Source: an uncultured virus (IMG/VR IMGVR_UViG_3300009418_000017)
Taxonomy: Duplodnaviria; Heunggongvirae; Uroviricota; Caudoviricetes
Direction: 5' to 3' (one strand)
Length of the DNA stretch: 64,000 nt
Virus record (IMG/VR): IMGVR_UViG_3300009418_000017
Made by a program: the position numbers and the translations under genes. The notes beneath the pieces are model-generated. The model had not been told where the DNA came from, ran no database searches, and saw nothing but the letters and a program-made list of their open reading frames with translations. How positions within the stretch are numbered: the first letter of the stretch is position 1; each line of letters begins with the position of its first letter. Shown here in pieces: positions 11,851-62,413 of the stretch.

Positions 11851-12732
11851 TCAGTCAGCTTCGAGATCGTGCATCGACAGGGGGTCATTCAGCCCTTGTT
11901 TGTCAAATTCTCGAAGCTTTAGCTGTTTTGGCAGCTCTCGACCGTAGTCTGGATTTGTGTAAACACCATAAAGCAGTTGTGTGTGAATCAACTGATTGCA
12001 GTTTTTCAAAAGCTGCTTGTCGGTGTACTTGTCAGCCAGAGAATCTATCTTCTTGCCTAAATTCACACCCGTTTTGTCTTTGGTTGTGAACTTCCAATAG
12101 AACTCTTCAAAGTCCTGCCTAAGCATTTTCTTGATAGGCCCCGGCTTTGACTGCCACTCTTCATAGACCGCAACCCAGTCGTAAATGTTGCAATCAAAAC
12201 GCTGAGACAAAAATTCAATGCCGGCTTCATAGGCAAAAGAACGACTCGGAGGTGCATAAACGAATCCCGATTTTTTGGCAAACGGGTTAAATCGCATCAT
12301 TGCCGATGTAATCTCGATGTATTTACGCCCGGTCATGCGGCACGCTAAGTTCACCATGCGGTATGAGACGCCGGCTCCTCGAAAAATCGGGCTTGTCACT
12401 ATGCGTGACGCACGTAAGAAGTTTTCATTGAGGAATTTAGCTCTCACTTGATTTGACGTTTTGGTCTCGGTACCCGTTGGCTTCAGTCTCGGAAACATTA
12501 CATGACGCTCTTTCAAGAGCATCTGAGGGGTCGAGAAAACGATCACTCCGATCAATTCATCGCGCAACATACAACGATACATTGAGTGACGCGGCGGCAT
12601 CGACTCGGCTTTGTAATGCAAGTGGTGCAACTTGTCCCAGTCTTCCAATGTAGCCGGCTCGACAACCATTTCATCTAAAAGTGAAAGTGCCGGGGAATCC
12701 GGCACGTTATTTTCAATGACTTCTGGATTCAT
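11851..12732 (-). CDS. GNAT-fold acyltransferase (ABC-ATPase-associated)
   Basis: LHHLHY; RASRIVTSPIFRGAGVS acyl-CoA-binding motif A. Confidence 0.75.
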   Translation of the reverse strand: MNPEVIENNVPDSPALSLLDEMVVEPATLEDWDKLHHLHYKAESMPPRHSMYRCMLRDELIGVIVFSTPQMLLKERHVMFPRLKPTGTETKTSNQVRAKFLNENFLRASRIVTSPIFRGAGVSYRMVNLACRMTGRKYIEITSAMMRFNPFAKKSGFVYAPPSRSFAYEAGIEFLSQRFDCNIYDWVAVYEEWQSKPGPIKKMLRQDFEEFYWKFTTKDKTGVNLGKKIDSLADKYTDKQLLKNCNQLIHTQLLYGVYTNPDYGRELPKQLKLREFDKQGLNDPLSMHDLEAD

Positions 12733-13403
12733 CAGTAGACCTCCAGCTCGGCCGGGTCGGTTACCAACATTTTCTTCTCATGGGCGTACTTCTTAATAAT
12801 CGTCTTATTAGCGCCCAGGTCACGCTGCAGGTCGCGATGAGTGGTTGCGGCCACTACTGCAATTTTGTGCTTCAATGAGACATTCCAGATGTGCCTGGCA
12901 AGCACTTTTGCAGTCTCTCTGTCCAAAATTGCACCAAATTCGTCGCAAATAATGACATCGACGTTCTTCTCAAGCAGCTTTGCAATTCGCAAACGGTATT
13001 TCTGACCGTCCGACAGCTGATTAGGCTTTCGGATGAATAGGTGTGCATCGTTCAAACCCGCCATGTTCAAAAGTTCGATAGCGTGATTGGTCGTCTCACC
13101 TAACTGGTCGACAAGCGGCTTATCTTCAATATCGACTTCGTCCAGATCACCAACTTTGAGACCGGCGTCGATGTAGTCTTGCTTCATCTGACGCAAAAGC
13201 TGAGTTTTTCCAGAGCCGGATTGCCCGGTTACATAGATACGCTCGCCTTTTTCAGTCTCAAAGTTAAAGTCTTCGTAGACAGTAAACGTGCTGTCCGCCA
13301 TATCCATGCCGAACGCTTCACAGGCTTCAATAACCCGATCAGTCCGTTCGACCGAGATCGGGAATTTAATGTTAATGCTATGCTGAATGGGAAAATTAGA
13401 CAT
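12732..13403 (-). CDS. Soluble ABC-family ATPase (probable start MSNFP at 13403)
   Basis: GQSGSGKT, LSDGQKYR, VIICDE, ATTH; no membrane partner. Confidence 0.88.
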   Translation of the reverse strand: MSNFPIQHSINIKFPISVERTDRVIEACEAFGMDMADSTFTVYEDFNFETEKGERIYVTGQSGSGKTQLLRQMKQDYIDAGLKVGDLDEVDIEDKPLVDQLGETTNHAIELLNMAGLNDAHLFIRKPNQLSDGQKYRLRIAKLLEKNVDVIICDEFGAILDRETAKVLARHIWNVSLKHKIAVVAATTHRDLQRDLGANKTIIKKYAHEKKMLVTDPAELEVY

Positions 13404-14097
13404 TGGCACTCTCCAACAACGCAACAAAGGCCTCTGAACGTTGCTCGTCAGTGGCTTTAACCGGGTCATGGCCAAGCTCGTCTAGCTTAATGGCCATAAA
13501 CTCACGTAATTTTCGTGCGTGTTTTTGAGTGACCGTCTTAAAGCCGACCGTTTTAGTCAGTGCAACCGTCTGATCGCCCTCGTCTTCAACTTCATCATCT
13601 TCGATCCCGGGATCTACCTCAGTCTCGTCTTCAATGTCATCCAGAGGCACTTCCATTTCACCTAAATCTTCAGTGAAAAGCTCCAAGTCACGAACTGAAA
13701 AGCCGGTCATTGCCGCCAAATCTTCTTCGCTAATGTCCTCATCAAGCTCTTTCATGATGACGTTCATTTCGAGCTTTTCCATTTCCGCATCGTACTCGGT
13801 CGATGTGGTTCGGTTCGCTGCCAGGCGTAAGCGACGCATTTGCGCTTTACTCAGGTCATCACGAACGTAGACAGGTATCTTTTTCCAGCCTAGCTTGTTT
13901 CTGCAGGTCATCCATCGACCGTGACCGCTGATTATAGTGCCGTCAGGCTCGATATGAGGGTATTGCTCAAGCCCCTGGTCTTGAATTGACGCGGCGAGGC
14001 GCTCAAGGTGTTCATCCGGGTGCTTTTTGGGATTGTTTTCGTATGGCTTGAGATCATCAATATCAACAAGCTTCGGCTCTAAGATTACTTTATCCAT
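13396..14097 (-). CDS. ParB/Srx N-terminal domain protein
   Basis: LKPYENNPKKH...IISGHGRW...RLAANRT. Confidence 0.88.
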   Translation of the reverse strand: MDKVILEPKLVDIDDLKPYENNPKKHPDEHLERLAASIQDQGLEQYPHIEPDGTIISGHGRWMTCRNKLGWKKIPVYVRDDLSKAQMRRLRLAANRTTSTEYDAEMEKLEMNVIMKELDEDISEEDLAAMTGFSVRDLELFTEDLGEMEVPLDDIEDETEVDPGIEDDEVEDEGDQTVALTKTVGFKTVTQKHARKLREFMAIKLDELGHDPVKATDEQRSEAFVALLESANV

Positions 14098-18805: not shown

Positions 18806-18962
18806 GGGTATAAGAGTCGATAACCTGGTGAGGCGGAAATTTGCCTAATTCCGTCGACCGGGTGATTTGGCTTGCTGTTTTGATTTGGCTGCTCGGGGAA
18901 TTTTAGGCGTTTGGGTATAAGGGTGAGTTTTCTGGTAGGCGGAAATTTGGGTATAAGGGTGA
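18806..18962 (+). repeat. GGGTATAAG direct repeats
   Basis: TTTGGGTATAAGGGTGA at 18910 and 18946; GGGTATAAG at 18806; related copies at 24740 and 24838. Confidence 0.75.
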
Positions 18963-19065
18963 ATTTTTGATTGGCAGAAAATTTTGATTCCATCGGGGTC
19001 ACGGCAGCTGAAAATCTCTAGGACTTTCAGTACCCGATTAAACTCTAATCATTCAATCGTTTTAA

Positions 19066-21429: not shown

Positions 21430-21552
21430 TGTAAAATTCCTTCTGTTGCTTGCTTGTTTGCTGAATGTTGTTGAGCGATTTGCTGTCTCGCTTCAACGGT
21501 TTCTATATTACAGTGCTGAGATAGGGGAGCAAGCGAAGTTAAGAACTTAAAT

Positions 21553-22323: not shown

Positions 22324-22509
22324 TACTCGTTCTCTCTTGCTTGCTGAATGTGAGTGTATATTACAACACTGAAATAGGCACTCAACAGCTTATCATAAAC
22401 TATTTACCTCACAGCCGGCTTGGAATAGGAATAATTGTTTAGTCATTCGCTTGAACGCCTTTGTGTCAGTGTCATAATACACACTCATTCATAAAGAGAG
22501 AGAAAAACA

Positions 22510-24101: not shown

Positions 24102-24269
24102 AATAGACTCCACTTGCTGTTGCTGAATGTGCTTATATATTACATTGCTGAGATAGGCACGCAATAGCGACCGTTTATTCATATTCCTGCATAACTATCC
24201 ACTATTTAAAACAAACCCTCGGGGATTTTTCTCGAAAACTGCATACCTACCCACACAAAGTGAATAAAA

Positions 24270-24737: not shown

Positions 24738-24889
24738 ATGGGTATAAGAAAAGACAGTTGGTAAATTTTTTTTGGAAATTTTGCGAGCGCCTGGTTTCCG
24801 GCTGTTTGTGCGTGTCCTGACTGGCCTGGGATTTTTTGGGTATAAAAGTTTGAGGGTCGCGCCCAATTTTTTTGTGAGGGAGCGCGTTC

Positions 24890-25520
24890 AACTAAACTCG
24901 TGCCTACTCCAATCACTCACTATCTGCCTACTCTCTCAATCTCCTCTCTATACACTCGTGCCTACTCACATCATTCTCAATCGCCTACTTTCTCATTCAA
25001 CAATCAATACACTCCTATTCTACCTACTCACGCTCTCTCCCTTCATTCTCCCAATGTACACGTTATGCCTAATCACTCTCTCTATACACGTAAGCTCTCT
25101 TCTCTCCATAAGCATGAGCTCTCCCTGTACCTGTGTGAACGTTTGTTCTTCTCCGTGTGTTTCTTTGTTTTGTTTTATCGTTAGCTCCTTTACTCCTTAT
25201 GATTGTTTGTTCATCCCTCCTAATGTTCGTTGTCCGTGTGAAATGTTTTTACTTTTATCGTTAGTTCCTGTCGGTCAGAACCGTTCTCCGGCTGTTACCT
25301 TTGATTGTTTTGTATTATTGATAGCCGAGAGTTTTTGAAATTGTTTGAGGCATTTGTGTTTTGTGTAGCCTGGGTGTTTGTTGGACTTGTTTTGTGAACG
25401 GGTTATTCCTGTGTTTTGTATAGTGAGCCGGGTGTTTGCTTGTGTTTGTGAAGGGAATGCTGTGCTGAGCTTATGAGACGCTTATTTGCTTGGTTTTGTT
25501 TTGTGTTGTGAGTCAGAATG
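24890..25520. other. Strand-skewed non-coding region, candidate replication origin
   Basis: G-poor tract with GCCTACT repeats (24902, 24926, 24960, 24983) switching to a T/G-rich tract. Confidence 0.5.
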
Positions 25521-28580: not shown

Positions 28581-28657
28581 ACCTTGCTTTTTGCTGAATG
28601 TATTTCAATTATGACATACGAAAATAGGCGCTCAAGAGCGCCCTTAATTTAATTGCC
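28581..28657 (-). promoter_or_regulatory. Representative promoter/operator/leader cassette (also ~30431, 33400, 34391, 36685, 37684, 38840, 40176, 42681, 50712)
   Basis: Minus strand: GGCAATTAA - hairpin with -35 TTGAGC - GCCT - operator containing -10 CATAAT - ACATTCAGCAA..GCAAGG - ATG. Confidence 0.85.
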
Positions 28658-30425: not shown

Positions 30426-30513
30426 TTTAAACCTCGCTTGCTTGCTGAATGTATCTCAATTCTGACATATCGAGATAGGCACACAAGAGCTAATAAGCAA
30501 TTAATTGCCTACA

Positions 30514-31032: not shown

Positions 31033-31122
31033 CCTTAGCCTCGCTATTTGCTGAATGATAATAAAAAAGCTTGAGTGCTTATTCTGACATTGCGAATAAG
31101 GCACTCAAGCTTTCGGGTTTAA

Positions 31123-31533: not shown

Positions 31534-31584
31534 AAATGTTACCTATTTGTTGCTAGCTGAATAATCTAGGCCGTAGCCTATTTT

Positions 31585-33393: not shown

Positions 33394-33484
33394 AATCATT
33401 TCCTGCTTTTTTTGCTGAATGTATTTCAATTTTTACATACCGTAGAAGGCATACAAGCGGCGCCTCAATAAAGACGCCACTGAC

Positions 33485-34385: not shown

Positions 34386-34481
34386 CTAAAACCTCGTTTG
34401 CTGCTGAATGTATTTACATAATGACATACAAAAATAGGCAAACAAGCGCTTTCAAACACTTATTTGCCTATGGTGGTGGAT

Positions 34482-36678: not shown

Positions 36679-36761
36679 GTTGTTACCTTGCTTGTTGCTG
36701 AATGTATTTCAATTTTGACATACAGTTTTAGGCAGTCAATACCGAACAAGACAAAAATTGC

Positions 36762-37677: not shown

Positions 37678-37753
37678 TGCTTAACCTTTGTTGCTTGCTG
37701 AATGTATCTACATAGTGACATACGAAAGAAGGCACGCAAGTGCGTGCCTCAAA

Positions 37754-38835: not shown

Positions 38836-39033
38836 AACAACCTCACTTGCTTGCTGAATGTATCTCAATTATGACAGAGTTGAATAGGCATAAAAGACAA
38901 GTCCAGTATTTATTTGCCTAGCGACAATCGTATAGCTTGGGTAGCATCACCGAGCGATGAAAAATCACCAAGCCCATCAACCTTAAACCGTCTTTCATGC
39001 TCGTGAATGATGATTCGCCCAAAGTACATTAGC

Positions 39034-40168: not shown

Positions 40169-40252
40169 TATCTTCACCTTGCTTGTTGCTGAATGTATTT
40201 CAATTTTGACATACAAAAAGAGGCACGCAAGTGCGTGCCTCAAATTAATTGC

Positions 40253-42674: not shown

Positions 42675-42771
42675 GTTGTTACCTTGCTTGTTGCTGAATG
42701 TATTTCAATTTTGACATACAAAAAGAGGCGGTCAATGCCGCCTCTTTAAATAATTGCCAAGTTATTATTTT

Positions 42772-43311
42772 CTAACCAGGTTTTTCTTCAACCGTAATAG
42801 GTTCAACGTTTAGGTTTAATGGTTGGTCGCTAATGAACGCCTTCAAATCTTTCAAGCTTAATAGTGCATTGCTATTGGCATCGAAAAAGTAATCTTTATT
42901 GCAAACACCATTTCCGGCGTTGTAGAGCCCATTTAGGCTTGGAGCTGTTCGCACCACATCACTATGAATACCTGACTCATCAATCTTGTCAGGTGGCGTC
43001 ATGTTGTTGCAGATATTCACCGGCGGACCCTTAGAAACAAAGTACCCAATGGCGTTGCCATTATCAGCCAGTACGTAGATATAGAACAGCTTGTTAGGCT
43101 GATCCATCCGCTTCATGTATTCGGCTACCACCTGTCGAGTAACAAAGTTATTAACGTCAGGCACCGGCACTGCATGATTAGCCTTTGATGAAATTTGAGC
43201 TCTTTGTCGCTCTTGCTGTTGAGACGTCGACTCTTTGGCGTCACAACCGGCTAAGGCCAATGCCATGCCCAATCCGGCAATAGCGCTAACTACAACTTCT
43301 AATTTGCGCAA
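42772..43311 (-). CDS. Lipoprotein
   Basis: Signal peptide with lipobox LAGC; TTG start with GGAG RBS. Confidence 0.75.
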   Translation of the reverse strand: MRKLEVVVSAIAGLGMALALAGCDAKESTSQQQERQRAQISSKANHAVPVPDVNNFVTRQVVAEYMKRMDQPNKLFYIYVLADNGNAIGYFVSKGPPVNICNNMTPPDKIDESGIHSDVVRTAPSLNGLYNAGNGVCNKDYFFDANSNALLSLKDLKAFISDQPLNLNVEPITVEEKPG

Positions 43312-43727
43312 TGTGTTTCTCCTTCCACTTTAAGTTTTTCTGGTAAACGGTCGTCAAAAAAGCGACCTGATGTATAGCTCTTGCGAGCCTCGTTGTTGTA
43401 CCGCATAACGTCTCCTGCAACCTGGGACTCCAATGCGGCAATGTTCGTGTAAATTCGAGAGAGGTCTTCTTCATCAGTCGTGACTTTTGCCAGCCTTTTC
43501 TGAGCCTTGAGAGACGCCTTTTTCTCGACCACTGTTGAGCACATATCGAAAAATTGCTCATAGCGTTGAATCCGGCTTTCCGCTGACTCAATTTGAACCT
43601 CTGCATTCACACGACCCGTCACTTCTGCCGTAAAATACCGCCAAGCCAAATGAGCAGCGGCAATCAACAAGATTAACCCGACAAAAACAACAAGAATCTT
43701 TGCCAATGCACGCTTTTCACCTTTCAT
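43299..43727 (-). CDS. Single-pass membrane protein with coiled coil, partner of the lipoprotein
   Basis: N-terminal TM helix; overlaps the lipoprotein start. Confidence 0.7.
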   Translation of the reverse strand: MKGEKRALAKILVVFVGLILLIAAAHLAWRYFTAEVTGRVNAEVQIESAESRIQRYEQFFDMCSTVVEKKASLKAQKRLAKVTTDEEDLSRIYTNIAALESQVAGDVMRYNNEARKSYTSGRFFDDRLPEKLKVEGETHCAN

Positions 43728-44116
43728 TTCATACTTACCTCGCTGAATGTTAATGATTAAAAATAATCGTTGAAAAGAGCTTATACTTTGACGCTTGCCT
43801 GAGTATATGTCAACACTGAAATACTAATAAGCTCAAAAGTTAATTCCTCAAATGGCGAATATCAAAGCCAAAACGACAACGACAACAACAATCTTCAACT
43901 TCTCTTCCGCATCCATAAATCCGCCTAGTTTTTAACCAATAAAAGTATAAGAGTTAGACCCCTCGTTTGACCACATCGTAAAATGGAACATTTTACCACC
44001 CGTCTATTCCGAGAAGTCTTGATATATAAGGGTTGTAGGCAAACTGACGGCTGCTAAAATTTTGCAAACACCGCCTACGCTTGCCCACATTCTGCCCACA
44101 TTTCGCACACAAAAAA

Positions 44117-44656
44117 TCAGAGCTCGTTGACAGGCACCGCCGCCATACCACAAACAAACAAATCAGCGCCCTTTTCACCCTTTTCAAAGAGCTCAAGTGC
44201 CCTTTCTTTTGTTGTAGCCACAAACGAATTAATCTCTTCGTCAAAGCGAATGCAGTAACCCTGCGCTCGCAACTTGGGACCAACCGTTTTAGTAACCGGC
44301 AGCACCTCGTTTGGCATCTGAGCTATGATCCGCTCAAAATCTGCTGAGGTCAGCTGTAAATGACCCTTTCGAGCCCTAACCAGTTTTTCAGCCAGTGCTC
44401 CGGTGACGGATTCGCTTTCTGACTCCATTCGAGACATCATAAGCTCAAGCTCTTTGTTCAGGTTCAACGCTTTGAACACCTTGAACAGCGTCTTTAACCG
44501 AACAGCCTCAGCTCGCTCAATAGCGGCAATTGACGGCTGTGACAGCCCAGTCATCGCCGCCAATTCTTTTTGTGACAGTCCGGCGCTTTTCCGCCGCTTT
44601 TGTATAAACGTGGCCAGAGCCTCAGAAAATTCTTCAAATTCCATGTTATCAACCAA
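44117..44656 (-). CDS. XRE-family HTH regulator
   Basis: RRKSAGLSQKELAAMTGLSQPSIAAIER. Confidence 0.85.
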   Translation of the reverse strand: MVDNMEFEEFSEALATFIQKRRKSAGLSQKELAAMTGLSQPSIAAIERAEAVRLKTLFKVFKALNLNKELELMMSRMESESESVTGALAEKLVRARKGHLQLTSADFERIIAQMPNEVLPVTKTVGPKLRAQGYCIRFDEEINSFVATTKERALELFEKGEKGADLFVCGMAAVPVNEL

Positions 44657-45182
44657 TGCTAGTTAAAAATTCAGAAGACATATTTGCCTTCAGTTTACTA
44701 CCATCTAGCACCGCAATGCCAAGAGCCGGCATCAATTTTCTCATTTGAGTGGCTTGAGAATTCGCTGTACTCTGCTTCAGCCCTTTCTCCAAGTACACTT
44801 CAATAAGCTCTTTACGCTCAAATTCTTTTTTCTCTTTGAGGTGTTCAAGGGCAATCAATGTGTATCGAGACAAAGGTTTTCCGGCCTGAAGCGCTGCAAT
44901 AGCGTTTTTCGCCTTGTCCTGGACTTTCTTGGGTAGGGACTCAATGTCGTAAGAGCCGGTTGAAACAGGCGCTTTCTTTGCGCTCTTTTTCTTTTCCGTC
45001 TCAGGCTTGGATTCGGCTTTCGCCTTTTTAGCCTGGCTTTTGGCACGAGCTTCATCAGCCTTCTTTTTTGTTTCGGCTTTCTTCTCTTGAAGCTTAGCTT
45101 CGTCTTCCGGTTTAGTGGTGGGCTTCGACGCTCCAATTTCTTCCTGAAGCTTGTCGATTTCTGCTAATAGATCGTCTGACAT
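44649..45182 (-). CDS. Lys/Ala-rich protein with probable C-terminal winged helix
   Basis: STANSQATQMRKLMPALGIA; leader and operator (45212) upstream. Confidence 0.7.
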   Translation of the reverse strand: MSDDLLAEIDKLQEEIGASKPTTKPEDEAKLQEKKAETKKKADEARAKSQAKKAKAESKPETEKKKSAKKAPVSTGSYDIESLPKKVQDKAKNAIAALQAGKPLSRYTLIALEHLKEKKEFERKELIEVYLEKGLKQSTANSQATQMRKLMPALGIAVLDGSKLKANMSSEFLTSIG

Positions 45183-45282
45183 GATACACCTCTTGCTTTT
45201 GCTGAATGTTTGTATTTCGATGCTGATATACTAAACGATCCGAGTAGGCAATCAAGCGGTTTTTGATTTTGTTTTTTCCAAT

Positions 45283-45372
45283 AAAAAACCGCCTTCCCAA
45301 GCAAAAGAAAGGCGGTCTACATTCAGCAATAGCAAGCAAGGTTTTACAAGAAGTGCAAAATCACGCTTACTT
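45283..45372 (-). ncRNA. Putative multi-target antisense sRNA complementary to the shared early-gene leader/RBS
   Basis: Promoter TTGTCG(45406-45401)-N17-TGTAAT(45383-45378) with TGn; body ACCUUGCUUGCUAUUGCUGAAUGUA; terminator ACCGCCUU...AAGGCGGU-UUUUU. Confidence 0.72.
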
Positions 45373-45435
45373 TGCTCATTACAGCATAAACCCTGGGCTG
45401 CGACAAGTTTTAATGCTTAATGCTGAATATCGGCT

Positions 45436-45876
45436 CTATTCCTTCTTAGCCTTTCGCTCTTTGTAAGACCGATAAAGCTCTTTTGCCTTTTCCGTTCCGC
45501 CCTGAAGCAATGGCTTGCTAAAGTAAAAAGGAACAATCCAGACCAGAATCGAGTTAATGTTTTTATCCACGATCTCCTGCAAGTCCTTCACAAAGTCAGC
45601 GTCAAATACAGCACCACCGGCTAAGAACAATACACAGACCAACCAAGCAAAAATCACAGCCACTACAATCGCTCGCCTTGAGACGTTCTGCCCCTCAGTG
45701 TTCTTCATGTACTTACCCAGGCTGTCGATAAACTGCCGGTTCGCCTCTACCCGCTCTTGATCGCCAAAATGAAGCTTGTCCATTCCTGATGAAACAGTGT
45801 CAAAGACGCCCTTCGTTGACTCAGGTGTTCCGAACATAGTACCGAATACGTGTTTAATGCCATTCCACAAACTCAT
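45436..45876 (-). CDS. Membrane protein, holin-like
   Basis: Amphipathic N-terminus, SRRAIVV followed by hydrophobic segments. Confidence 0.5.
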   Translation of the reverse strand: MSLWNGIKHVFGTMFGTPESTKGVFDTVSSGMDKLHFGDQERVEANRQFIDSLGKYMKNTEGQNVSRRAIVVAVIFAWLVCVLFLAGGAVFDADFVKDLQEIVDKNINSILVWIVPFYFSKPLLQGGTEKAKELYRSYKERKAKKE

Positions 45877-45939
45877 AAAAAAATACCCCTGTTAATGAAT
45901 AACAGAGGCATTTTATCAACTATCTCAGTATTGAGATAC

Positions 45940-46182
45940 CTAAGTGTAACGAGAAATCTTCTGGTGCGACTTCAATACCAACTCCCAGGCGGTCATTAAA
46001 ATCAACCAAATGCCGCAAGCAATCGAGAACAAGCCGAACAGAAGCGAATATCTGGCCAATAGCTCAAAAACATAACCATACCCGCCAAACGCTTCTTCGT
46101 TCCACTGGCCAAACACGCCCAAAGGTATGCTTGCCAGTGTAAACATGACACCAAATAACGTGAGCTTTATTGCGTCTCGCAT
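45940..46182 (-). CDS. Small two-TM membrane protein
   Basis: Two hydrophobic segments. Confidence 0.55.
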   Translation of the reverse strand: MRDAIKLTLFGVMFTLASIPLGVFGQWNEEAFGGYGYVFELLARYSLLFGLFSIACGIWLILMTAWELVLKSHQKISRYT

Positions 46183-46745
46183 GAAAGTTCCTCCAAGTCT
46201 AACTTAAAATAGCCTTTCTTAAGGCCGTAAATGAGAGCGTCCATCATTTTCTCGGTATCGTACCAAGCTCGGTGAGCGCTAACCTCATCAAAATCTATCC
46301 GACACGCCCGACAAAGCTCAGCCAGTTTTGGCACCTTGCCGTTAGGAGTAGCCCATCTGCCGTTTTGCATCGTACAGAAGATCTCAATATCCGGCATTTC
46401 GAGTTTCACTTTGTTCATCATGTGGTACATGAACGGCGCATCGAAATTGGCATTGTGAGCCACAAAAACGTCACAACCGTTAATTATTGACTTCACTTTG
46501 GGCGCAATCTCATGCCACTCCGGAGCACCCTTTACCATGTCCGGTGTGATACCTGTTATCTCCTGAACCTTTTGCGGTATGCTGCGCTTCGGATCAACAA
46601 GTGTCGACCACTTCTTTCGGTCAACGGCCTCCATTGTCTCGGTGTCGAGTTTGACAATGCTTATGGCAATCTCAGTTACCATGTGACCGTCATCTGCATC
46701 GAAACCTGTGGTCTCTAAATCCGTTCCGAATAATTTAAGTATCAT
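46167..46745 (-). CDS. DEDDh 3'-5' exonuclease (DnaQ-like)
   Basis: DLETTG, VAHNANFD, HRAWYD. Confidence 0.92.
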   Translation of the reverse strand: MILKLFGTDLETTGFDADDGHMVTEIAISIVKLDTETMEAVDRKKWSTLVDPKRSIPQKVQEITGITPDMVKGAPEWHEIAPKVKSIINGCDVFVAHNANFDAPFMYHMMNKVKLEMPDIEIFCTMQNGRWATPNGKVPKLAELCRACRIDFDEVSAHRAWYDTEKMMDALIYGLKKGYFKLDLEELSCETQ

Positions 46746-47181
46746 ATTTTTCCCTCAACTTTTTGACCACGTTTTTAAAGCGCTTACAGGCGTCACTGGA
46801 ATCGCTTATGTTGATTGACTTCACCGGCTCCGAGATCAAAATGCGCATTTCGCTCGGAATGTAGTTTATGTGGTATGGGCCAGCCCTAACGGTGTCCGTT
46901 GATTGACCCACAACCTCTTTATTAAACTCGTGAAGCACGTTAATCAAAAAGTCGTCCTTGTCGTATCCGTTCAATACCGAATACAGTGCGTGAATAGCTT
47001 CATAACCGGCGTTGGTGGACATATTGCCAGCCTCAACAGCCAGGCAAATGTTCTCAATCTGTCCGGTTATCTTTCTCTGAATGCCGTCCTGAAACTGTTC
47101 GAAGTCTTCTTCAGCGATTTTAAGGCGCTCTCTCAACCTCTCTATTTCAGTGATTGACTCCAGTTCTTTCATGTCACTCAT
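46735..47181 (-). CDS. Hypothetical protein
   Basis: Leader with 21/21 match to the sRNA; operator 47220. Confidence 0.7.
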   Translation of the reverse strand: MSDMKELESITEIERLRERLKIAEEDFEQFQDGIQRKITGQIENICLAVEAGNMSTNAGYEAIHALYSVLNGYDKDDFLINVLHEFNKEVVGQSTDTVRAGPYHINYIPSEMRILISEPVKSINISDSSDACKRFKNVVKKLREKYDT

Positions 47182-47242
47182 TGCTCTTACCTTGCTTGCT
47201 ATTGCTGAACGACTTAATACTATCTCAGCAATGAAATACTAA

Positions 47243-47902
47243 TCAAGCAACAAAAGCACGCCGAGTTAGAAAATAATCCCTCTCCAAGTTGTGCACCATC
47301 ATGATTGCACGTCTATGAATGGATGCGCTTGGAATTAATCGACCCATTTGCTCACTGGATAGCGGTGCGCCTGTCACTGACTGATAAAGACCGACCATCA
47401 TTGCGTGTATGGCAAGCTGAGCGGCTTTTGACGGCTTACCCTTGCCCTCGACTGCACTGGTGTACTCCAATGGCTCACAGACGTACACACGAAAGAATGG
47501 GCTAAACTTCTTGTAGAATTCGGCACAAGTCTCAAGCATGGTTGTGAATACATGGTCTGCATACACTCTTTCGTTTTGTCGAACGTTGGCCACCGTACCA
47601 ATGTCAAACATCATCGCTGTGTAAGCCAGATAGTCCAGAGGCGAACGGTCGGCTACATAAATTGTTTGGTTGCCGTCCTGCAAAAGCTCGATGTACTTTT
47701 CCATCGCTATGTAGAAAATATGCTTCTGACGCTCAATAACTTCAGAGAAGTCGTTGGTGTGCATATCAAAACCGGCACCCTCGATCATTTCTCCGGTATT
47801 CATGTATAACGGCTGTGCATTGTTCAGCATTGGTGCTAAGTTTTCAGCCAGTGTGGTTTTCCCTGAGCGGTGAGCTCCCGCTAAAAATATAATCTTTGAC
47901 AT
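47243..47902 (-). CDS. P-loop nucleotide kinase-like protein (start revised to MSKII)
   Basis: GAHRSGKTT, VADRSPLDYLAY. Confidence 0.75.
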   Translation of the reverse strand: MSKIIFLAGAHRSGKTTLAENLAPMLNNAQPLYMNTGEMIEGAGFDMHTNDFSEVIERQKHIFYIAMEKYIELLQDGNQTIYVADRSPLDYLAYTAMMFDIGTVANVRQNERVYADHVFTTMLETCAEFYKKFSPFFRVYVCEPLEYTSAVEGKGKPSKAAQLAIHAMMVGLYQSVTGAPLSSEQMGRLIPSASIHRRAIMMVHNLERDYFLTRRAFVA

Positions 47903-47963
47903 AGTTGTTACCTCAAACAGCAAAAAGGGGCACGAATGCCCCGACATTAACTTGTTTAAACGA

Positions 47964-48908
47964 TTAGCCTTCCATCACACGGTAAGCTTCGTGGGTGCAT
48001 AGCTTGTCGAATGCTTTTTCAAAAGCAATCTGCTCACCAAGCTCCTGATCGAAGTCATCAGGGTTCACGCACGAAGAGTCGCCTTCAACAGCAAAGCCTG
48101 ACGGCATTTTAATGACACAAATTGTCATCGTGGTTTCAGGCACAATAGTGTACTCAACACTGGCAATGCGAGACTTAAGCTCATCAACATCAATTGCCTT
48201 GTTACGACCATCGTTGTCGTTAACCTGGTCTTGACCGGCTACCTTCGCATCGTAGTATTCGAGCAAGCCTTTCTTAATAAACTCTAAAGGCTCTTCTTCT
48301 AAGGCGATTGTCTCAGCCATTCTGCCGACAAAATCAACCATGACTTCGTTGTCTTCCTGGCCGTTCCAGATTTTGCGGTACTCACCTTCTTTGTAGCCAC
48401 GCTCCTGACGAACAAAGTTTAGGGCGTTTTTACCCATATACATTGAATAGAAGGTCTCAAAATCACCGTAAAAATCCATCACCATGTCGAACAATATAAT
48501 ATAGAAATTAAAGGTCGGCACTCCAACCGTAAAATGCTCGGTTAACTCAGCCTTGCCATAAGAAATAGAGCCCTGATTAGGCACCGTTTCTGACCATGCT
48601 TGAGAAATTGCTCCCGCCAGATAATCAAGGGCTTCATCAAAAGACTTGTAGCCTTTCATTTCATGTTCAATGCTTGCAGACATTGCAAAGTGGAATATAT
48701 CGACCAACTCCATTGCTGCCTGATCCAAGTCCGGTGTCTGATTCTTCCACCACTTGTAACCCATGTGGTCGTGAAACTCACCAAACTCTACGTTAATGGC
48801 TACTGCATCTTCACGCTTAACTTTTGGGTTAATTGGCCAATCCTTGTCAATTTTTTGGTTAAACAAGGTTTGAAGCTCTAACATTTTGCGGAACTGCTTC
48901 TTGTGCAT
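47964..48908 (-). CDS. Dimeric all-alpha dUTPase fused to a C-terminal phage Gp49/66-like domain
   Basis: EFGE..YKWWK..ELVDIFHF..KNALNFVRQ..GY..EDNE; C-terminal TICVIKMPSGFAVEGDSSCVNPDDFDQELG. Confidence 0.85.
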   Translation of the reverse strand: MHKKQFRKMLELQTLFNQKIDKDWPINPKVKREDAVAINVEFGEFHDHMGYKWWKNQTPDLDQAAMELVDIFHFAMSASIEHEMKGYKSFDEALDYLAGAISQAWSETVPNQGSISYGKAELTEHFTVGVPTFNFYIILFDMVMDFYGDFETFYSMYMGKNALNFVRQERGYKEGEYRKIWNGQEDNEVMVDFVGRMAETIALEEEPLEFIKKGLLEYYDAKVAGQDQVNDNDGRNKAIDVDELKSRIASVEYTIVPETTMTICVIKMPSGFAVEGDSSCVNPDDFDQELGEQIAFEKAFDKLCTHEAYRVMEG

Positions 48909-48916
48909 AATTGCCT

Positions 48917-49525
48917 CTATTGCTGTAATGTTTTTGTTTGCTGTTTTGGGTAATCTTTCCCTGCTTCAATCACGGCATCAATCGACTGCTCGTAATTGTC
49001 GTGGTACTCAATTGCGTAAATGGCGTGAGAGAACTCATCAAAGTCCGCCACGTCACAGGGAATCATATCGAACGCCACTGTCGAGAAATGGTCAAGGTTC
49101 TGATAACGAACTTCATCCGGTGACCCAGTGCTTTTGTAGTCCACCGATGATGCGTGTACCGCCTCAACTCTTCCCGATCTAAATGCTGCATCCCAGGCAC
49201 CCGGTCCACCGATGACAAACCACTGCTTATCAAGCCAACGGTTCATATTGGTGAAAGCCTCCAGGCTTTCTGCATAAATGACGGTTTCGCCATTCTCCTG
49301 CACCTCAGTGATACCGTCAAAGCCACTGGAAAGAACGACATTGATACGGTTTGGCAAAGGAAATTTTGGTAACCCCATGAAAGTGCCTTTGCCCATAATG
49401 ACAACCTGGTTCTTCGTTGTCTCTTTGAAAAGCTTCAGCTCTTCAGAAATGTGCCAGGGTAGGCGGTCACCTACCCCAACAACATATTCCTCACCGAAAG
49501 CCATTATGACTCTCAACCCCTTCAT
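48917..49525 (-). CDS. folA: Dihydrofolate reductase
   Basis: [39 protein letters not shown]. Confidence 0.92.
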
Positions 49526-50385
49526 ACAGAGATTTCTCCTTTAATAGCTGAGTGAGGTTTATAACCAACAAGCTCCACCATATCCGGCGTCAGATTGTCG
49601 ATGGTTGCTTCAGAATCTAACTTCACTGAAGGCAAGCTCTTAGGCTTGCGACCTAATTGCTTCTTAACCTGGTCTACGTGATTCAGGTATATGTGAGCGT
49701 CACCAATCGTATGAATGAACTCGCTAGCAACGTGACCTGTCATGTTCGCCACCAATTGCAGCAGAAGCGCATAGCTTGCGATATTGAACGGAACCCCCAA
49801 AAACAGATCTGCGCTGCGTTGGTACAGCTGCAACGATAAGTGACGGGCACCATCAATTTCATAGCTCTTAAACTGAAACAGCGTGTGGCATGGCGGTAAC
49901 GCCTGATTGCCTTTCTCTGCATTCTCAGAAGGAGACATTGAGGTGTCCGGTAGTAAGGCCGGGTTCCAACCGCTTACGATGATGCGGCGGCTGTCAGGCT
50001 CTTCTTTCAGCTGACGGATCACTTCACGCAATTGGTCGAAGCGCAAATCCATTGTATTCATGCCGTGATCGATCTTGTGCGGCCAACTGCGCCACATTTT
50101 CCCGTAGATAGGGCCTAGCTCCCCATCTTCAGTCGCCCAGTCATCCCAAATTTTTGCACCAAGCTCGTTCAGTCGCTTAGCGTTGGTACTTCCTTCTAAA
50201 AACCAACAAAGCTCCGCCACGATAGCGTCAAAGTTCACTTTCTTGGTGGTCACCAAAGGAAAGCCTTCTTTCAAGTCGTACCGAGACTGAGTGCCAAACA
50301 AGCTGATGGTGCCGGTGCCTGTTCGGTCGCCGGTCTCAACGCCTTCTGTTAGCACCTTGTCCAATAAATCATGGTACTGCTTCAT
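49522..50385 (-). CDS. thyA: Thymidylate synthase (start revised to MKQYH)
   Basis: [36 protein letters not shown]. Confidence 0.97.
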
Positions 50386-50398
50386 ACTTCCTCCTACG

Positions 50399-50704
50399 TT
50401 ATATGTAGGGAATGACTGTTTCACTTTCAGCTATCTCAGTGAACAACAGGTAGCTACCATGAGCTCTCATGTCGTCCTTGAAATAGCCCTTCTGAGCGAT
50501 GTCTTCAGAAACGCCTTTCAACGTTCTCATAAAACACTGAACTAACGTTGGGTGAGACTTTAAAAGGCCTGTTAAAAAGCCCTGCTTCACCTCTTCGTCG
50601 TAGCCCATTATGTTTATCGACTCCAACAGTCTTCCTACTTGTTTTTCAACGTCTTCAGTTACTTTTTGTTTTTGCTTGTGAAGATTTAAGCCTTCTTTAT
50701 CCAT
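50399..50704 (-). CDS. Hypothetical protein
   Basis: Cassette upstream (50712-50750). Confidence 0.7.
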
Positions 50705-50788
50705 GTTGATTACCTTGCTCGTTGCTGAATGTATTTCAATTCTGACATACTGAACAAGGCAATCAACTAGACCTAAAACAAAAACCCC

Positions 50789-51007
50789 TTACATTTTTAC
50801 CTCGACCTTGAGAGGCTCTATTTCATCTGACCTGATTTTGACAGGTGTTTTATCCTTCCCATAATAAGTATGGTTGGCAAGGACAATGAATACTCCCAAG
50901 TAAAAAAGGAGAAATGCCACTCCAACTATGCGCCACTTCCTTCTATACAAATAAGCAAGCACAGCCTTTCCCAAATTCTGCGAGGTCAGTCGAAAATCGA
51001 AACCCAT
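50789..51007 (-). CDS. Small membrane protein
   Basis: One TM segment. Confidence 0.5.
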   Translation of the reverse strand: MGFDFRLTSQNLGKAVLAYLYRRKWRIVGVAFLLFYLGVFIVLANHTYYGKDKTPVKIRSDEIEPLKVEVKM

Positions 51008-59884: not shown

Positions 59885-59932
59885 CTTTTAATCTCGCTTG
59901 TCTTGCTGAATGTATTTCAATACTTACATAAA

Positions 59933-61486: not shown

Positions 61487-62413
61487 TTATGCGAATAGAC
61501 GTTCAACGGTGTCTATTTGATTCGCCAAACTGATGAAATTGTTGTCCTCGAAAAACACCAAAGTTTCTTCTTTACTGAACTTAGGCTTTTCCATCTTGAG
61601 GCCGCTTGGTTTTGGCGACTTGCTCATATCCATAAGCGCTATGTTCCGCTTAAGGATCTCCAGACCGCCATTTTCGTTGCTACAAAAAGCGTTAATCTTC
61701 TTGCGAGCCCGAGTAAGCTCTTTGGGCAAGTCTTCTTTTTCAAACTCACCATTTGCCCGATAAGCTTTAATCAATTCAGCTATGCTTCCGAAATGATTAA
61801 TAACTCGCTGAGCTGTTAGCTCTCCCAGGCCACCAACGCCGGGTATGCAGTCTGAGTTGTCACCTTGCAAATACTTAGATTCGAGAAATTGCTTGGTTGT
61901 TTTAAACCCTGTCTTTTTCTCGAAACCATGAGTATCAACTACCTCATCGTTATGTAGGTTGTACCAGTGAACGAACGGGTTAACCAATTGCAGCCAGTCC
62001 TTGTCACCAGTCACAAGCAAAACACGCTTGCCGTTGTCCGATAACTTTTTGCTTATCCAATAAGCCAGGTCATCAGCTTCTAAACCTTCATAGCTCAATT
62101 GCTGAATGCCCATCTTTTCGAGCGCTTCTTTGATCAGGGGTCGCTGCTTGCGGTATTCTTCCCGCTCAGCCGCCACTTTCGGATTGTCGTCACGCTTTGA
62201 TTTGTACTCAGGGTATATGTCAAAGCGGAACTGACAGTGCTCGTCCCACAGACAGATAATTCGAGCGTCAGGGTTTAAGCGCTTAAACTTGATCATCTGC
62301 TTGATACTTTGAAACACGGCTTGAGTTTGGTTACCGTCTCCGTCGTTAAGCTTGCGAGTGCTATTCGACTGATAACCCACCGCATTCATATCAACCAAAA
62401 TTACGTTATACAT
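61487..62413 (-). CDS. 5'-3' exonuclease / flap endonuclease
   Basis: YPEYKSKR, EADD, TGDKDWLQL, GDNSDCIPGVGGLG. Confidence 0.93.
   Translation of the reverse strand: MYNVILVDMNAVGYQSNSTRKLNDGDGNQTQAVFQSIKQMIKFKRLNPDARIICLWDEHCQFRFDIYPEYKSKRDDNPKVAAEREEYRKQRPLIKEALEKMGIQQLSYEGLEADDLAYWISKKLSDNGKRVLLVTGDKDWLQLVNPFVHWYNLHNDEVVDTHGFEKKTGFKTTKQFLESKYLQGDNSDCIPGVGGLGELTAQRVINHFGSIAELIKAYRANGEFEKEDLPKELTRARKKINAFCSNENGGLEILKRNIALMDMSKSPKPSGLKMEKPKFSKEETLVFFEDNNFISLANQIDTVERLFA

Follow-up and report, generated by a model that had tools for sequence, protein, structure and literature searches.

The uncultured virus recorded as IMG/VR IMGVR_UViG_3300009418_000017 is a marine phage of ~102 kb (101,852 bp in the whole record, G001) whose minus strand carries nearly all of its genes. 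Within a 64,000-nucleotide stretch of this DNA, referred to here as the window, we analyzed a 25-nt minus-strand element at 45318-45342, the anti-leader, which is an exact mirror of a leader sequence that heads ~24 of the phage's own messages. On minus-strand RNA, the anti-leader extends from 2 nt before CATTCAGCAA to the AAGGT ribosome site, and no second inverted copy exists in the 101,852-bp record. Alignment of the window to the whole record covered 60,818 bases with 2 differences before wrapping to the record start.

The anti-leader lies in the 3' tail (45435-45277) of a minus-strand gene at 45436-45876, which encodes a 146-aa protein (phrog_9646; relatives at 99, 83, and 76% identity) with Vibrio-phage homologues annotated as 'TMhelix containing protein'. 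The start region of this gene is without the leader. Along the minus strand, the tail consists of a sense-like leader copy (45430-45413), two promoter-like hexamers (45406-45378), a hairpin that we call SL1 (45376-45325), a linker (45325-45317), and a terminator, with two degenerate leader-like stretches upstream of the mirror copy. A first-pass annotation made from the sequence had placed an intrinsic terminator beside the mirror copy, and our scan called one at 45277-45318 on the minus strand, with a 13-bp stem, a 7-nt loop, and a T-run (-19.3 kcal/mol, z = -4.83). The stem spans 45318-45286, and the U-tail reads six U followed by AUU, giving the intrinsic terminator with a U-tail that is looked for in small RNAs.

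Upstream of the 146-aa gene lies an exonuclease operon that is transcribed from the 47211 leader. After the third gene of this operon come an operator-like 20-bp dyad (45939-45920), identified by comparison with the dyad of the promoter cassette described below, then TGATAAAAT (dyad and motif together, 45910-45939, minus strand), and a hairpin with U7 (45914-45877, minus strand) directly before the ATG at 45876. From its sequence, TGATAAAAT may be an extended -10 promoter (45918-45910) for gene 45436-45876. The hairpin is strong (-18.3 kcal/mol, z = -6.1), gave a Spot 42-like terminator alignment, and holds the ribosome site of gene 45436-45876 in its 3' arm. Such a structure would terminate the 47211 operon and mask the site at which ribosomes bind the following gene. 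The region 45877-45939 resembles an attenuator or a translational lock coupled to a terminator.

The core of the shared leader is a 10-mer, which with up to one mismatch had 30 matches in the window compared to 7.57 +/- 2.83 expected; none of 100 shuffles reached 30. Exact copies numbered 17, comprising 16 in leader sense on the minus strand and one inverted (45320-45329). Fifteen of the 16 exact sense copies stand immediately upstream of a minus-strand start, and the remaining one, at 62099, falls within ORF 61487-62413. Three more leaders, at 34401, 43740, and 47202, carry one mismatch. All 18 leader sites named in the first-pass annotation proved to be real and to lie directly before minus-strand starts (15 exact, 3 with one mismatch), and a weaker leader that it placed near 31541 is present with 2 mismatches. 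Two of the leaders concern us most, namely that of the exonuclease operon (47189-47211) and that of an operon encoding a 177-aa protein and a helix-turn-helix (HTH) regulator (45199-45208). The other leader copies in the window, likewise on the minus strand, are at 59903-59912, 50722-50731, 43740-43749 (1 mismatch), 42691-42700, 40186-40195, 38851-38860, 37695-37704, 36695-36704, 34401-34410 (1 mismatch), 33412-33421, 31048-31057, 30442-30451, 28591-28600, 24120-24129, 22341-22350, and 21458-21467. Six further copies precede starts outside the window in G001, bringing the number in the phage to ~24.

Most leader copies are preceded by a conserved three-part cassette. The first part is a G+C-rich hairpin with a T-run that ends the preceding unit and includes the -35 hexamer, the second is a -10 hexamer with TG upstream, and the third is a 20-bp dyad lying across both the -10 and the start point. 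Cassette elements called by the scan include the terminators 40241-40220 and 42747-42722 and the promoter 42735-42708. The dyad occurs with no more than one mismatch at 6 leader promoters in the range 28600-50750 (for example, 42719-42700, 40214-40195, and 36723-36704), and variants of it occupy the 47211 promoter spacer, overlie the 45208 promoter (45231-45212), and occur at 45939-45920. Because the promoters of an Aeromonas relative hold a different palindrome at the same position, the dyad is probably the operator of a phage repressor. The second gene of the 45208-leader unit (44117-44656) encodes a 179-aa protein that has a Cro/C1-type HTH domain (HTH_3, 45.6 bits) at its N terminus and is a candidate for the phage repressor.

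The position of the 10-mer relative to promoters and ribosome sites was also compared among leaders. In 10 of 18 window promoters, 7 nt separate the end of the best-scoring -10 from the 10-mer; in the other 8 the distance is 9 to 48 nt, and some of the far best-scoring hexamers are probably not the true promoter. In most units the 10-mer starts the message; where the promoter is apparently farther back, the 10-mer still directly precedes the ribosome site. Leaders differ by a few bases in the spacing of the 10-mer and the GCAAGG part. This fixed place near the ribosome site, combined with the variable gap, suggests that the leader functions in RNA rather than as a protein-binding site in DNA. 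Contigs from other sequencing runs join different cassettes, at 42735/50722 (skipping 7,986 bases) and 44905/50722 (skipping 5,816); these joints are either assembly branch points or real deletion variants produced by recombination between cassettes.

Comparison of the anti-leader with individual leaders identified the leader of the exonuclease operon as its best partner. A repeat search paired arms at 45322-45342 and 47189-47209 (21 nt, 100% complementary, 1,846 bp apart), in agreement with the 21/21 match to this leader reported earlier, and the predicted duplex has an energy of -40.8 kcal/mol. The 45208 leader gave arms of 18 nt, 109 nt apart, that are 94% complementary (17/18). Inverted-sense matches to the 10-mer with up to one mismatch number four in G001, and only the one at 45320 extends into the GCAAGG part; the claim that there is a single full inverted copy held across the whole record. 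The first bases of the anti-leader correspond to the consensus CATTC, unlike the CGTTC variant of the 47211 leader. The mirror copy is also trimmed to the transcribed leader, with the terminator, operator, and promoter of the cassette absent on that strand.

The anti-leader would act as the seed of any RNA made from the tail, and we examined how it folds. The 167-nt tail folded at -55.0 kcal/mol as minus-strand RNA (z = -4.0) compared to -37.1 kcal/mol as plus-strand RNA. SL1 (45325-45376, minus strand) is a hairpin of ~52 nt (-20.2 kcal/mol, z = -4.85) in which the anti-leader is the 3' arm, followed inward by an inner hairpin and a leader-like 5' arm (45376-45362); this arm is the second of the decayed leader-like stretches and was absent from the first-pass annotation. 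On plus-strand RNA, SL1 reaches only -12.5 kcal/mol, and two of its pairs are G-U pairs that exist only on minus-strand RNA. An accessibility computation left ~9 of the 25 seed nucleotides open, in a toehold at 45317-45325 on the minus strand. Opening 8 nt in this linker costs 2.2-3.0 kcal/mol, compared to 8-13 kcal/mol across most of the stem-bound seed. The open linker can pair with the bases at which the target messages begin, and so it could provide a toehold from which the imperfect leader-like arm would then be displaced.

The stretch upstream of SL1 has no more structure than its shuffles (z = -0.46). The sense-like copy at 45413-45430 on the minus strand had been suggested to fold back on the seed as an off switch, and it does pair with the seed (-17.6 kcal/mol); the hairpin that it would form is not significant by the same score. 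For that reason, we also dropped the hairpin upstream of SL1 as an argument against the promoter discussed below.

Predicted pairing of the seed with its targets was strong. Duplexes formed by a 30-nt seed region with the 18 window leaders ranged from -25 to -41 kcal/mol, and the mean was -29.4 kcal/mol for 19 leader-bearing start regions compared to -13.2 +/- 3.6 kcal/mol (lowest -24.4) for 128 other starts, although these energies, like the co-folding gains and ribosome-site counts given next, follow from complementarity and are not independent evidence. When a 102-nt RNA was co-folded with the first 60 nt of each message, the net gain for window leaders was -10 to -29 kcal/mol after subtracting the cost of unfolding both RNAs, and it was smaller for copies inside genes. 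By a strict count, the GG of the ribosome site falls within the duplex at 13 of the 18 window leaders; for several of the remaining 5, the wrong start codon had been picked or the site is without GG. The earlier proposal that the RNA blocks ribosome binding across a whole regulon draws support from this predicted pairing over ribosome sites and is weakened by the burial of most of the seed in SL1.

The first-pass annotation attributed the RNA to a sigma70-type promoter of its own at 45378-45406 on the minus strand, consisting of TTGTCG (45406-45401), a 17-nt spacer, and TGTAAT (45383-45378) with TG upstream. The hexamers and the TG are present, and in a crude match count this candidate scores 10, compared to 7-10 for the 18 leader promoters. 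A consensus promoter scan of 44600-46000 called none; the candidate went uncalled because the scan requires A at the second base of the -10. Its sole -10 mismatch is a G at that base, a position that is almost always A in sigma-70 promoters and is the most critical one of the hexamer. We rather doubt that this promoter is genuine, and the suggestion that the RNA is made in the lysogen, which depends wholly on it, is doubtful with it.

A source that had not been considered is gene 45436-45876 itself. The mirror copy lies between the stop codon of this gene and the only terminator of the unit, so that any transcription of the gene includes the mirror copy. An RNA carrying it is likely to be made with or without the candidate promoter. 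Polymerase might reach the gene by reading through from the 47211 operon, or initiate at the possible extended -10 at 45918-45910. Both of these upstream sources are associated with operator-like dyads, which favors production together with the early genes, leading to delayed shut-off, over production in the silent plasmid state. Shut-off in the lytic cycle is no less probable a role than a lock in the lysogen.

We tentatively favor, at a little short of an even chance, the reading in which the anti-leader RNA acts in trans and damps translation of the leader-bearing messages. Starting from the sequences, the terminator, the fold, and the predicted energies, which were established directly, we infer accumulation of the RNA, its pairing in the cell, the direction of its effect, and its timing. 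A minus-strand RNA ending at the terminator 45318-45286 would carry the 25-nt mirror of the leader that heads ~24 early and accessory messages. The RNA would consist of the 3' tail of gene 45436-45876; a shorter RNA of ~90-165 nt, either a transcript in its own right or a product of processing, may exist as well. The 9 open nucleotides would first catch the extreme 5' end of a target message, after which pairing would spread along the leader to the ribosome-binding site, ousting the weaker leader-like arm of SL1. As an outcome, translation of the whole leader-bearing set would be lowered together. An RNA chaperone would probably assist, either host Hfq or the phage's own Hfq-like protein.

Action in trans is favored because one inverted copy stands against ~24 sense copies in 101,852 bp, and because the ends of the mirror match the transcribed leader, up to the T after AAGG, rather than the DNA cassette. 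The copy also adjoins a strong terminator on the transcribed strand, as in 3'-derived small RNAs, in which a terminator-proximal seed is the usual layout. The open toehold, the minus-strand-specific structure, and the presence of an Hfq-like gene further favor this reading. With a single RNA directed against a tag that two dozen of its messages share, the phage could time or silence a whole gene set economically, and an exact leader with an exact mirror makes a directly testable system.

Several points weigh against this reading. Sixteen of the 25 seed nucleotides are paired in SL1, and the candidate promoter has the G at its second -10 position. Exact 21/21 identity to the nearest upstream leader is what would be expected from a recent inverted duplication. 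No RNA sequencing runs covering 44000-48000 were listed, and the shared leader is absent from the Aeromonas plasmid pKAM376_1 and the related records G006, G007, and G008, each read whole. The link to Hfq consists of co-occurrence in one genome only.

The strongest of the alternatives, which we nevertheless regard as unlikely, is that the tail is a cis-acting 3' structure only, with SL1 and the terminator protecting or processing the 3' end of the 45436-45876 message, for example as a long, near-perfect hairpin accessible to RNase III. SL1 is a significant hairpin of the kind this requires, but a stabilizing hairpin needs no exact copy of the leader. In a variant of this explanation, the mirror would fold on the leader 109 nt downstream in read-through RNA, so that the next operon would go untranslated unless its own promoter was used. 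The 18-nt, 94% complementary arms formed with the 45208 leader are consistent with such folding, and icaR provides a known case of a single mRNA that pairs its 5' untranslated region with its 3' one, according to the available text of PMC3868564. However, the best match of the mirror is the upstream 47211 leader (21/21) and not the downstream one (17/18). Strong terminators separate the copy from the downstream leader and, at 45914-45877, from the 47211 leader, so that same-molecule pairing would need read-through on either side.

The anti-leader could also be a functionless relic, left when recombination or template switching between cassettes inserted an inverted piece of the 47211 leader beside decayed sense copies, and we consider this explanation rather unlikely. 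The genome holds repeated copies of the cassette, which resembles the PeSLs, recombination modules found in T4-type phages, as far as these are described in the available text of PMC2839356. Two degenerate sense-like copies occupy the same spacer, the 21/21 match with the nearest leader points to recent copying, and the whole system is absent in relatives at 50% identity. The joints between cassettes in contigs from other runs (42735-50722 and 44905-50722) point the same way, although they may be assembly artefacts. A relic would not be expected to be trimmed exactly to the transcribed leader, lacking operator and promoter, nor to begin with the consensus CATTC rather than the CGTTC of its supposed 47211 source. 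In addition, the copy abuts a terminator in the orientation that places it in RNA, and pairing with the other arm of SL1 is kept by G-U pairs that exist only on minus-strand RNA.

It is very improbable that the element serves the plus strand, either as the true leader of a 37-codon GTG frame (45353-45466) that begins 10 nt after the AAGG or as part of an invertible segment. In the latter case, the two 21-bp arms, which match perfectly in inverted orientation at a distance of 1,846 bp, would bound 1.85 kb of DNA, and its inversion would disconnect the exonuclease operon from its promoter. However, the scan called no plus-strand promoter (in line with the earlier statement that no gene lies behind the mirror copy), the short frame is antisense to the end of gene 45436-45876 and unsupported by any search, and no strand-changing joint was found here among the joints listed for four DNA runs.

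The trans-acting RNA that we favor would probably gain from a chaperone, and the phage encodes a possible one. An 89-aa Hfq-like gene, itself headed by the shared leader, lies outside the window on the minus strand (G001:20187-20456; L138:1435-1704). Against Pfam, its protein was sub-threshold for both Hfq (PF17209, 16 bits with a cut-off of 27) and LSM (18.2 bits with a cut-off of 23.4). An exhaustive homologue search found 48 proteins at E <=0.001, 46 of which were aligned; 16 of these 46 match Pfam Hfq (E <=0.01) and 15 match LSM. The structural model of the 89-aa protein has a pLDDT of 84, and among the top Foldseek PDB matches listed, all were Hfq chains, with target-normalised TM-scores of 0.67-0.82 and rmsd of 1.1-3.2 Å. 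The modeled protein thus has an Sm fold like that of solved Hfq structures. A profile search also located the gene in 3 of 5 related viral records; the Aeromonas plasmid pKAM376_1 carries an annotated Hfq (L135:46019-46342; Pfam Hfq 36.9 bits).

On the RNA side, the leaders are rich in A-purine-any triplets, which are bound by the distal face of Hfq, and the candidate RNA ends in a U-tail. A chaperone-assisted circuit is plausible from these sequence features. A bolder proposal, which we judge somewhat unlikely, is a genome-wide RNA control layer in which the fixed, A/C-rich leader on ~24 early and accessory messages, the toeholded anti-leader RNA, and the phage Hfq-like chaperone together switch translation of the early set. 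Since an Hfq-like gene occurs here, in 3 of the 5 related records, and in the Aeromonas phage-plasmid, control through RNA may well be a regular, little studied feature of SSU5-type phage-plasmids; in the literature searched, no paper links SSU5-type elements with Hfq.

The phage is placed in the SSU5 phage-plasmid group by its major capsid protein, which is 60% identical to that of Aeromonas plasmids (103-135 kb), 52% to that of Pseudomonas phage nickie, and 48% to that of Salmonella phage SSU5, and which matches 954 plasmid records. This sequence-based placement is consistent with the earlier guess that the virus is a phage-plasmid. Its gene content comprises a head/tail module, ParB-like proteins with a helicase, a long series of small unknown genes, and a further block for nucleotide metabolism, recombination, and replication. 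Beside the packaging module, two adjacent genes at 11851-13475 match PHROG families of ABC transporter ATP-binding subunits (phrog_886, E = 6e-94, and phrog_293). Tandem repeats occur in gene-poor stretches at 24888-25014 (58 bp, 2.2 copies) and 18910-18984 (36 bp, 2.1 copies) and may be binding arrays for plasmid replication or partition; in the relatives L153 and L154, clear iteron arrays lie 3-5 kb downstream of the exonuclease gene.

Among the relatives at ~50% protein identity, pKAM376_1, G006, G007, and G008 have palindromic operators and iterons. Their commonest upstream 8-mers are parts of palindromes and precede no more than 8 genes, compared to 17 genes here. Since these relatives are without the leader, the system would be young or lineage-specific. 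Closer relatives, with proteins 74-83% identical, exist on Logan and ENA contigs, one of 90.7 kb. Megablast and blastn searches against phages found no relative with the leader. Protein-guided scans of viral, metagenome, and genome contigs with the 146-aa protein returned only the phage's own record, and a portal-protein scan returned only a fragment of the same phage. Pattern scans of viral contigs yielded chance or coding matches and one own fragment (L217), and a pattern scan of genome contigs yielded 10 single chance matches; four long viral contigs from the pattern scan were searched, and no capsid relative was found in them. Four DNA runs provided a 95-kb contig of a variant strain that spans 42700-51000, with 181 differences over 8.3 kb.

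Permissive searches of Rfam with 44000-47500 and 45200-46050 gave only matches below threshold, to Spot 42 (27.2 against 80), GcvB (RF00022, 21.8 against 42), PyrR, and mir-26, and the C4 antisense RNA family had no covariance-model match in either region. In the literature searched, no phage RNA is described that acts against a leader shared by many of the phage's own genes. Known systems resemble parts of this arrangement. A repeated unit of stem-loop terminator and sigma-70-like promoter is present here between early genes, as it is between the small early genes of T4-type phages in the form of PeSLs (PMC2839356, available text). The modules of this phage differ in adding the 20-bp dyad operator and a fixed transcribed leader and in belonging to the SSU5 group rather than to a T4-type phage, and no mirror copy is described for PeSLs in that text. 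In the icaR mRNA of Staphylococcus aureus, a mirror of the ribosome site likewise lies in a 3' untranslated tail (PMC3868564, available text). As described there, icaR pairs within one molecule, whereas strong terminators here separate the copy from both neighboring leaders. Its 21/21 partner lies 1,846 nt upstream, with the -18.3 kcal/mol hairpin and U7 between them.

To our knowledge, the known phage antisense RNAs c4, sar, and OOP each control one gene. The available text of PMC12197685 presents c4 (P1/P7) and sar (P22) as small phage RNAs that pair around a ribosome-binding site, block translation, and form part of immunity. They resemble the anti-leader RNA in pairing at the ribosome site, and P1 is likewise a phage-plasmid; they differ in that each has one target message (ant), whereas ~24 messages share the target here. 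The c4 RNA is cut out of the transcript that is under its own control. On these analogies, the anti-leader RNA would work like c4 and sar, and it is a member of neither family by sequence or Rfam model. The CI RNA of satellite phage P4 is an immunity factor whose seed is complementary to flanking sense boxes in the same leader transcript, which recalls the two sense-like boxes upstream of the mirror copy. The P4 system differs in causing premature termination in one operon from a 5' leader, whereas the present element is in a 3' tail and its predicted targets are scattered ribosome sites.

In multi-target logic, the closest known RNA is GcvB, an Hfq-dependent RNA of enterobacteria that directs one G/U-rich seed against C/A-rich stretches upstream of many ribosome sites. 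With 21.8 bits, where the gathering threshold is 42, the anti-leader RNA is not a member of this family. The messages that GcvB targets encode host transporters and have in common no more than loose C/A-rich stretches, whereas this phage has an exact shared 10-mer (15 of 18 window leaders) and matches that extend to 21-25 nt. Phage T4 offers a parallel in RegA, a single phage factor that acts at the start regions of numerous early messages and represses their translation. RegA differs in being a protein, while the factor here would be an RNA. If the genome-wide control layer does exist, it would be an RNA counterpart of T4 RegA, or a second immunity layer of a phage-plasmid.

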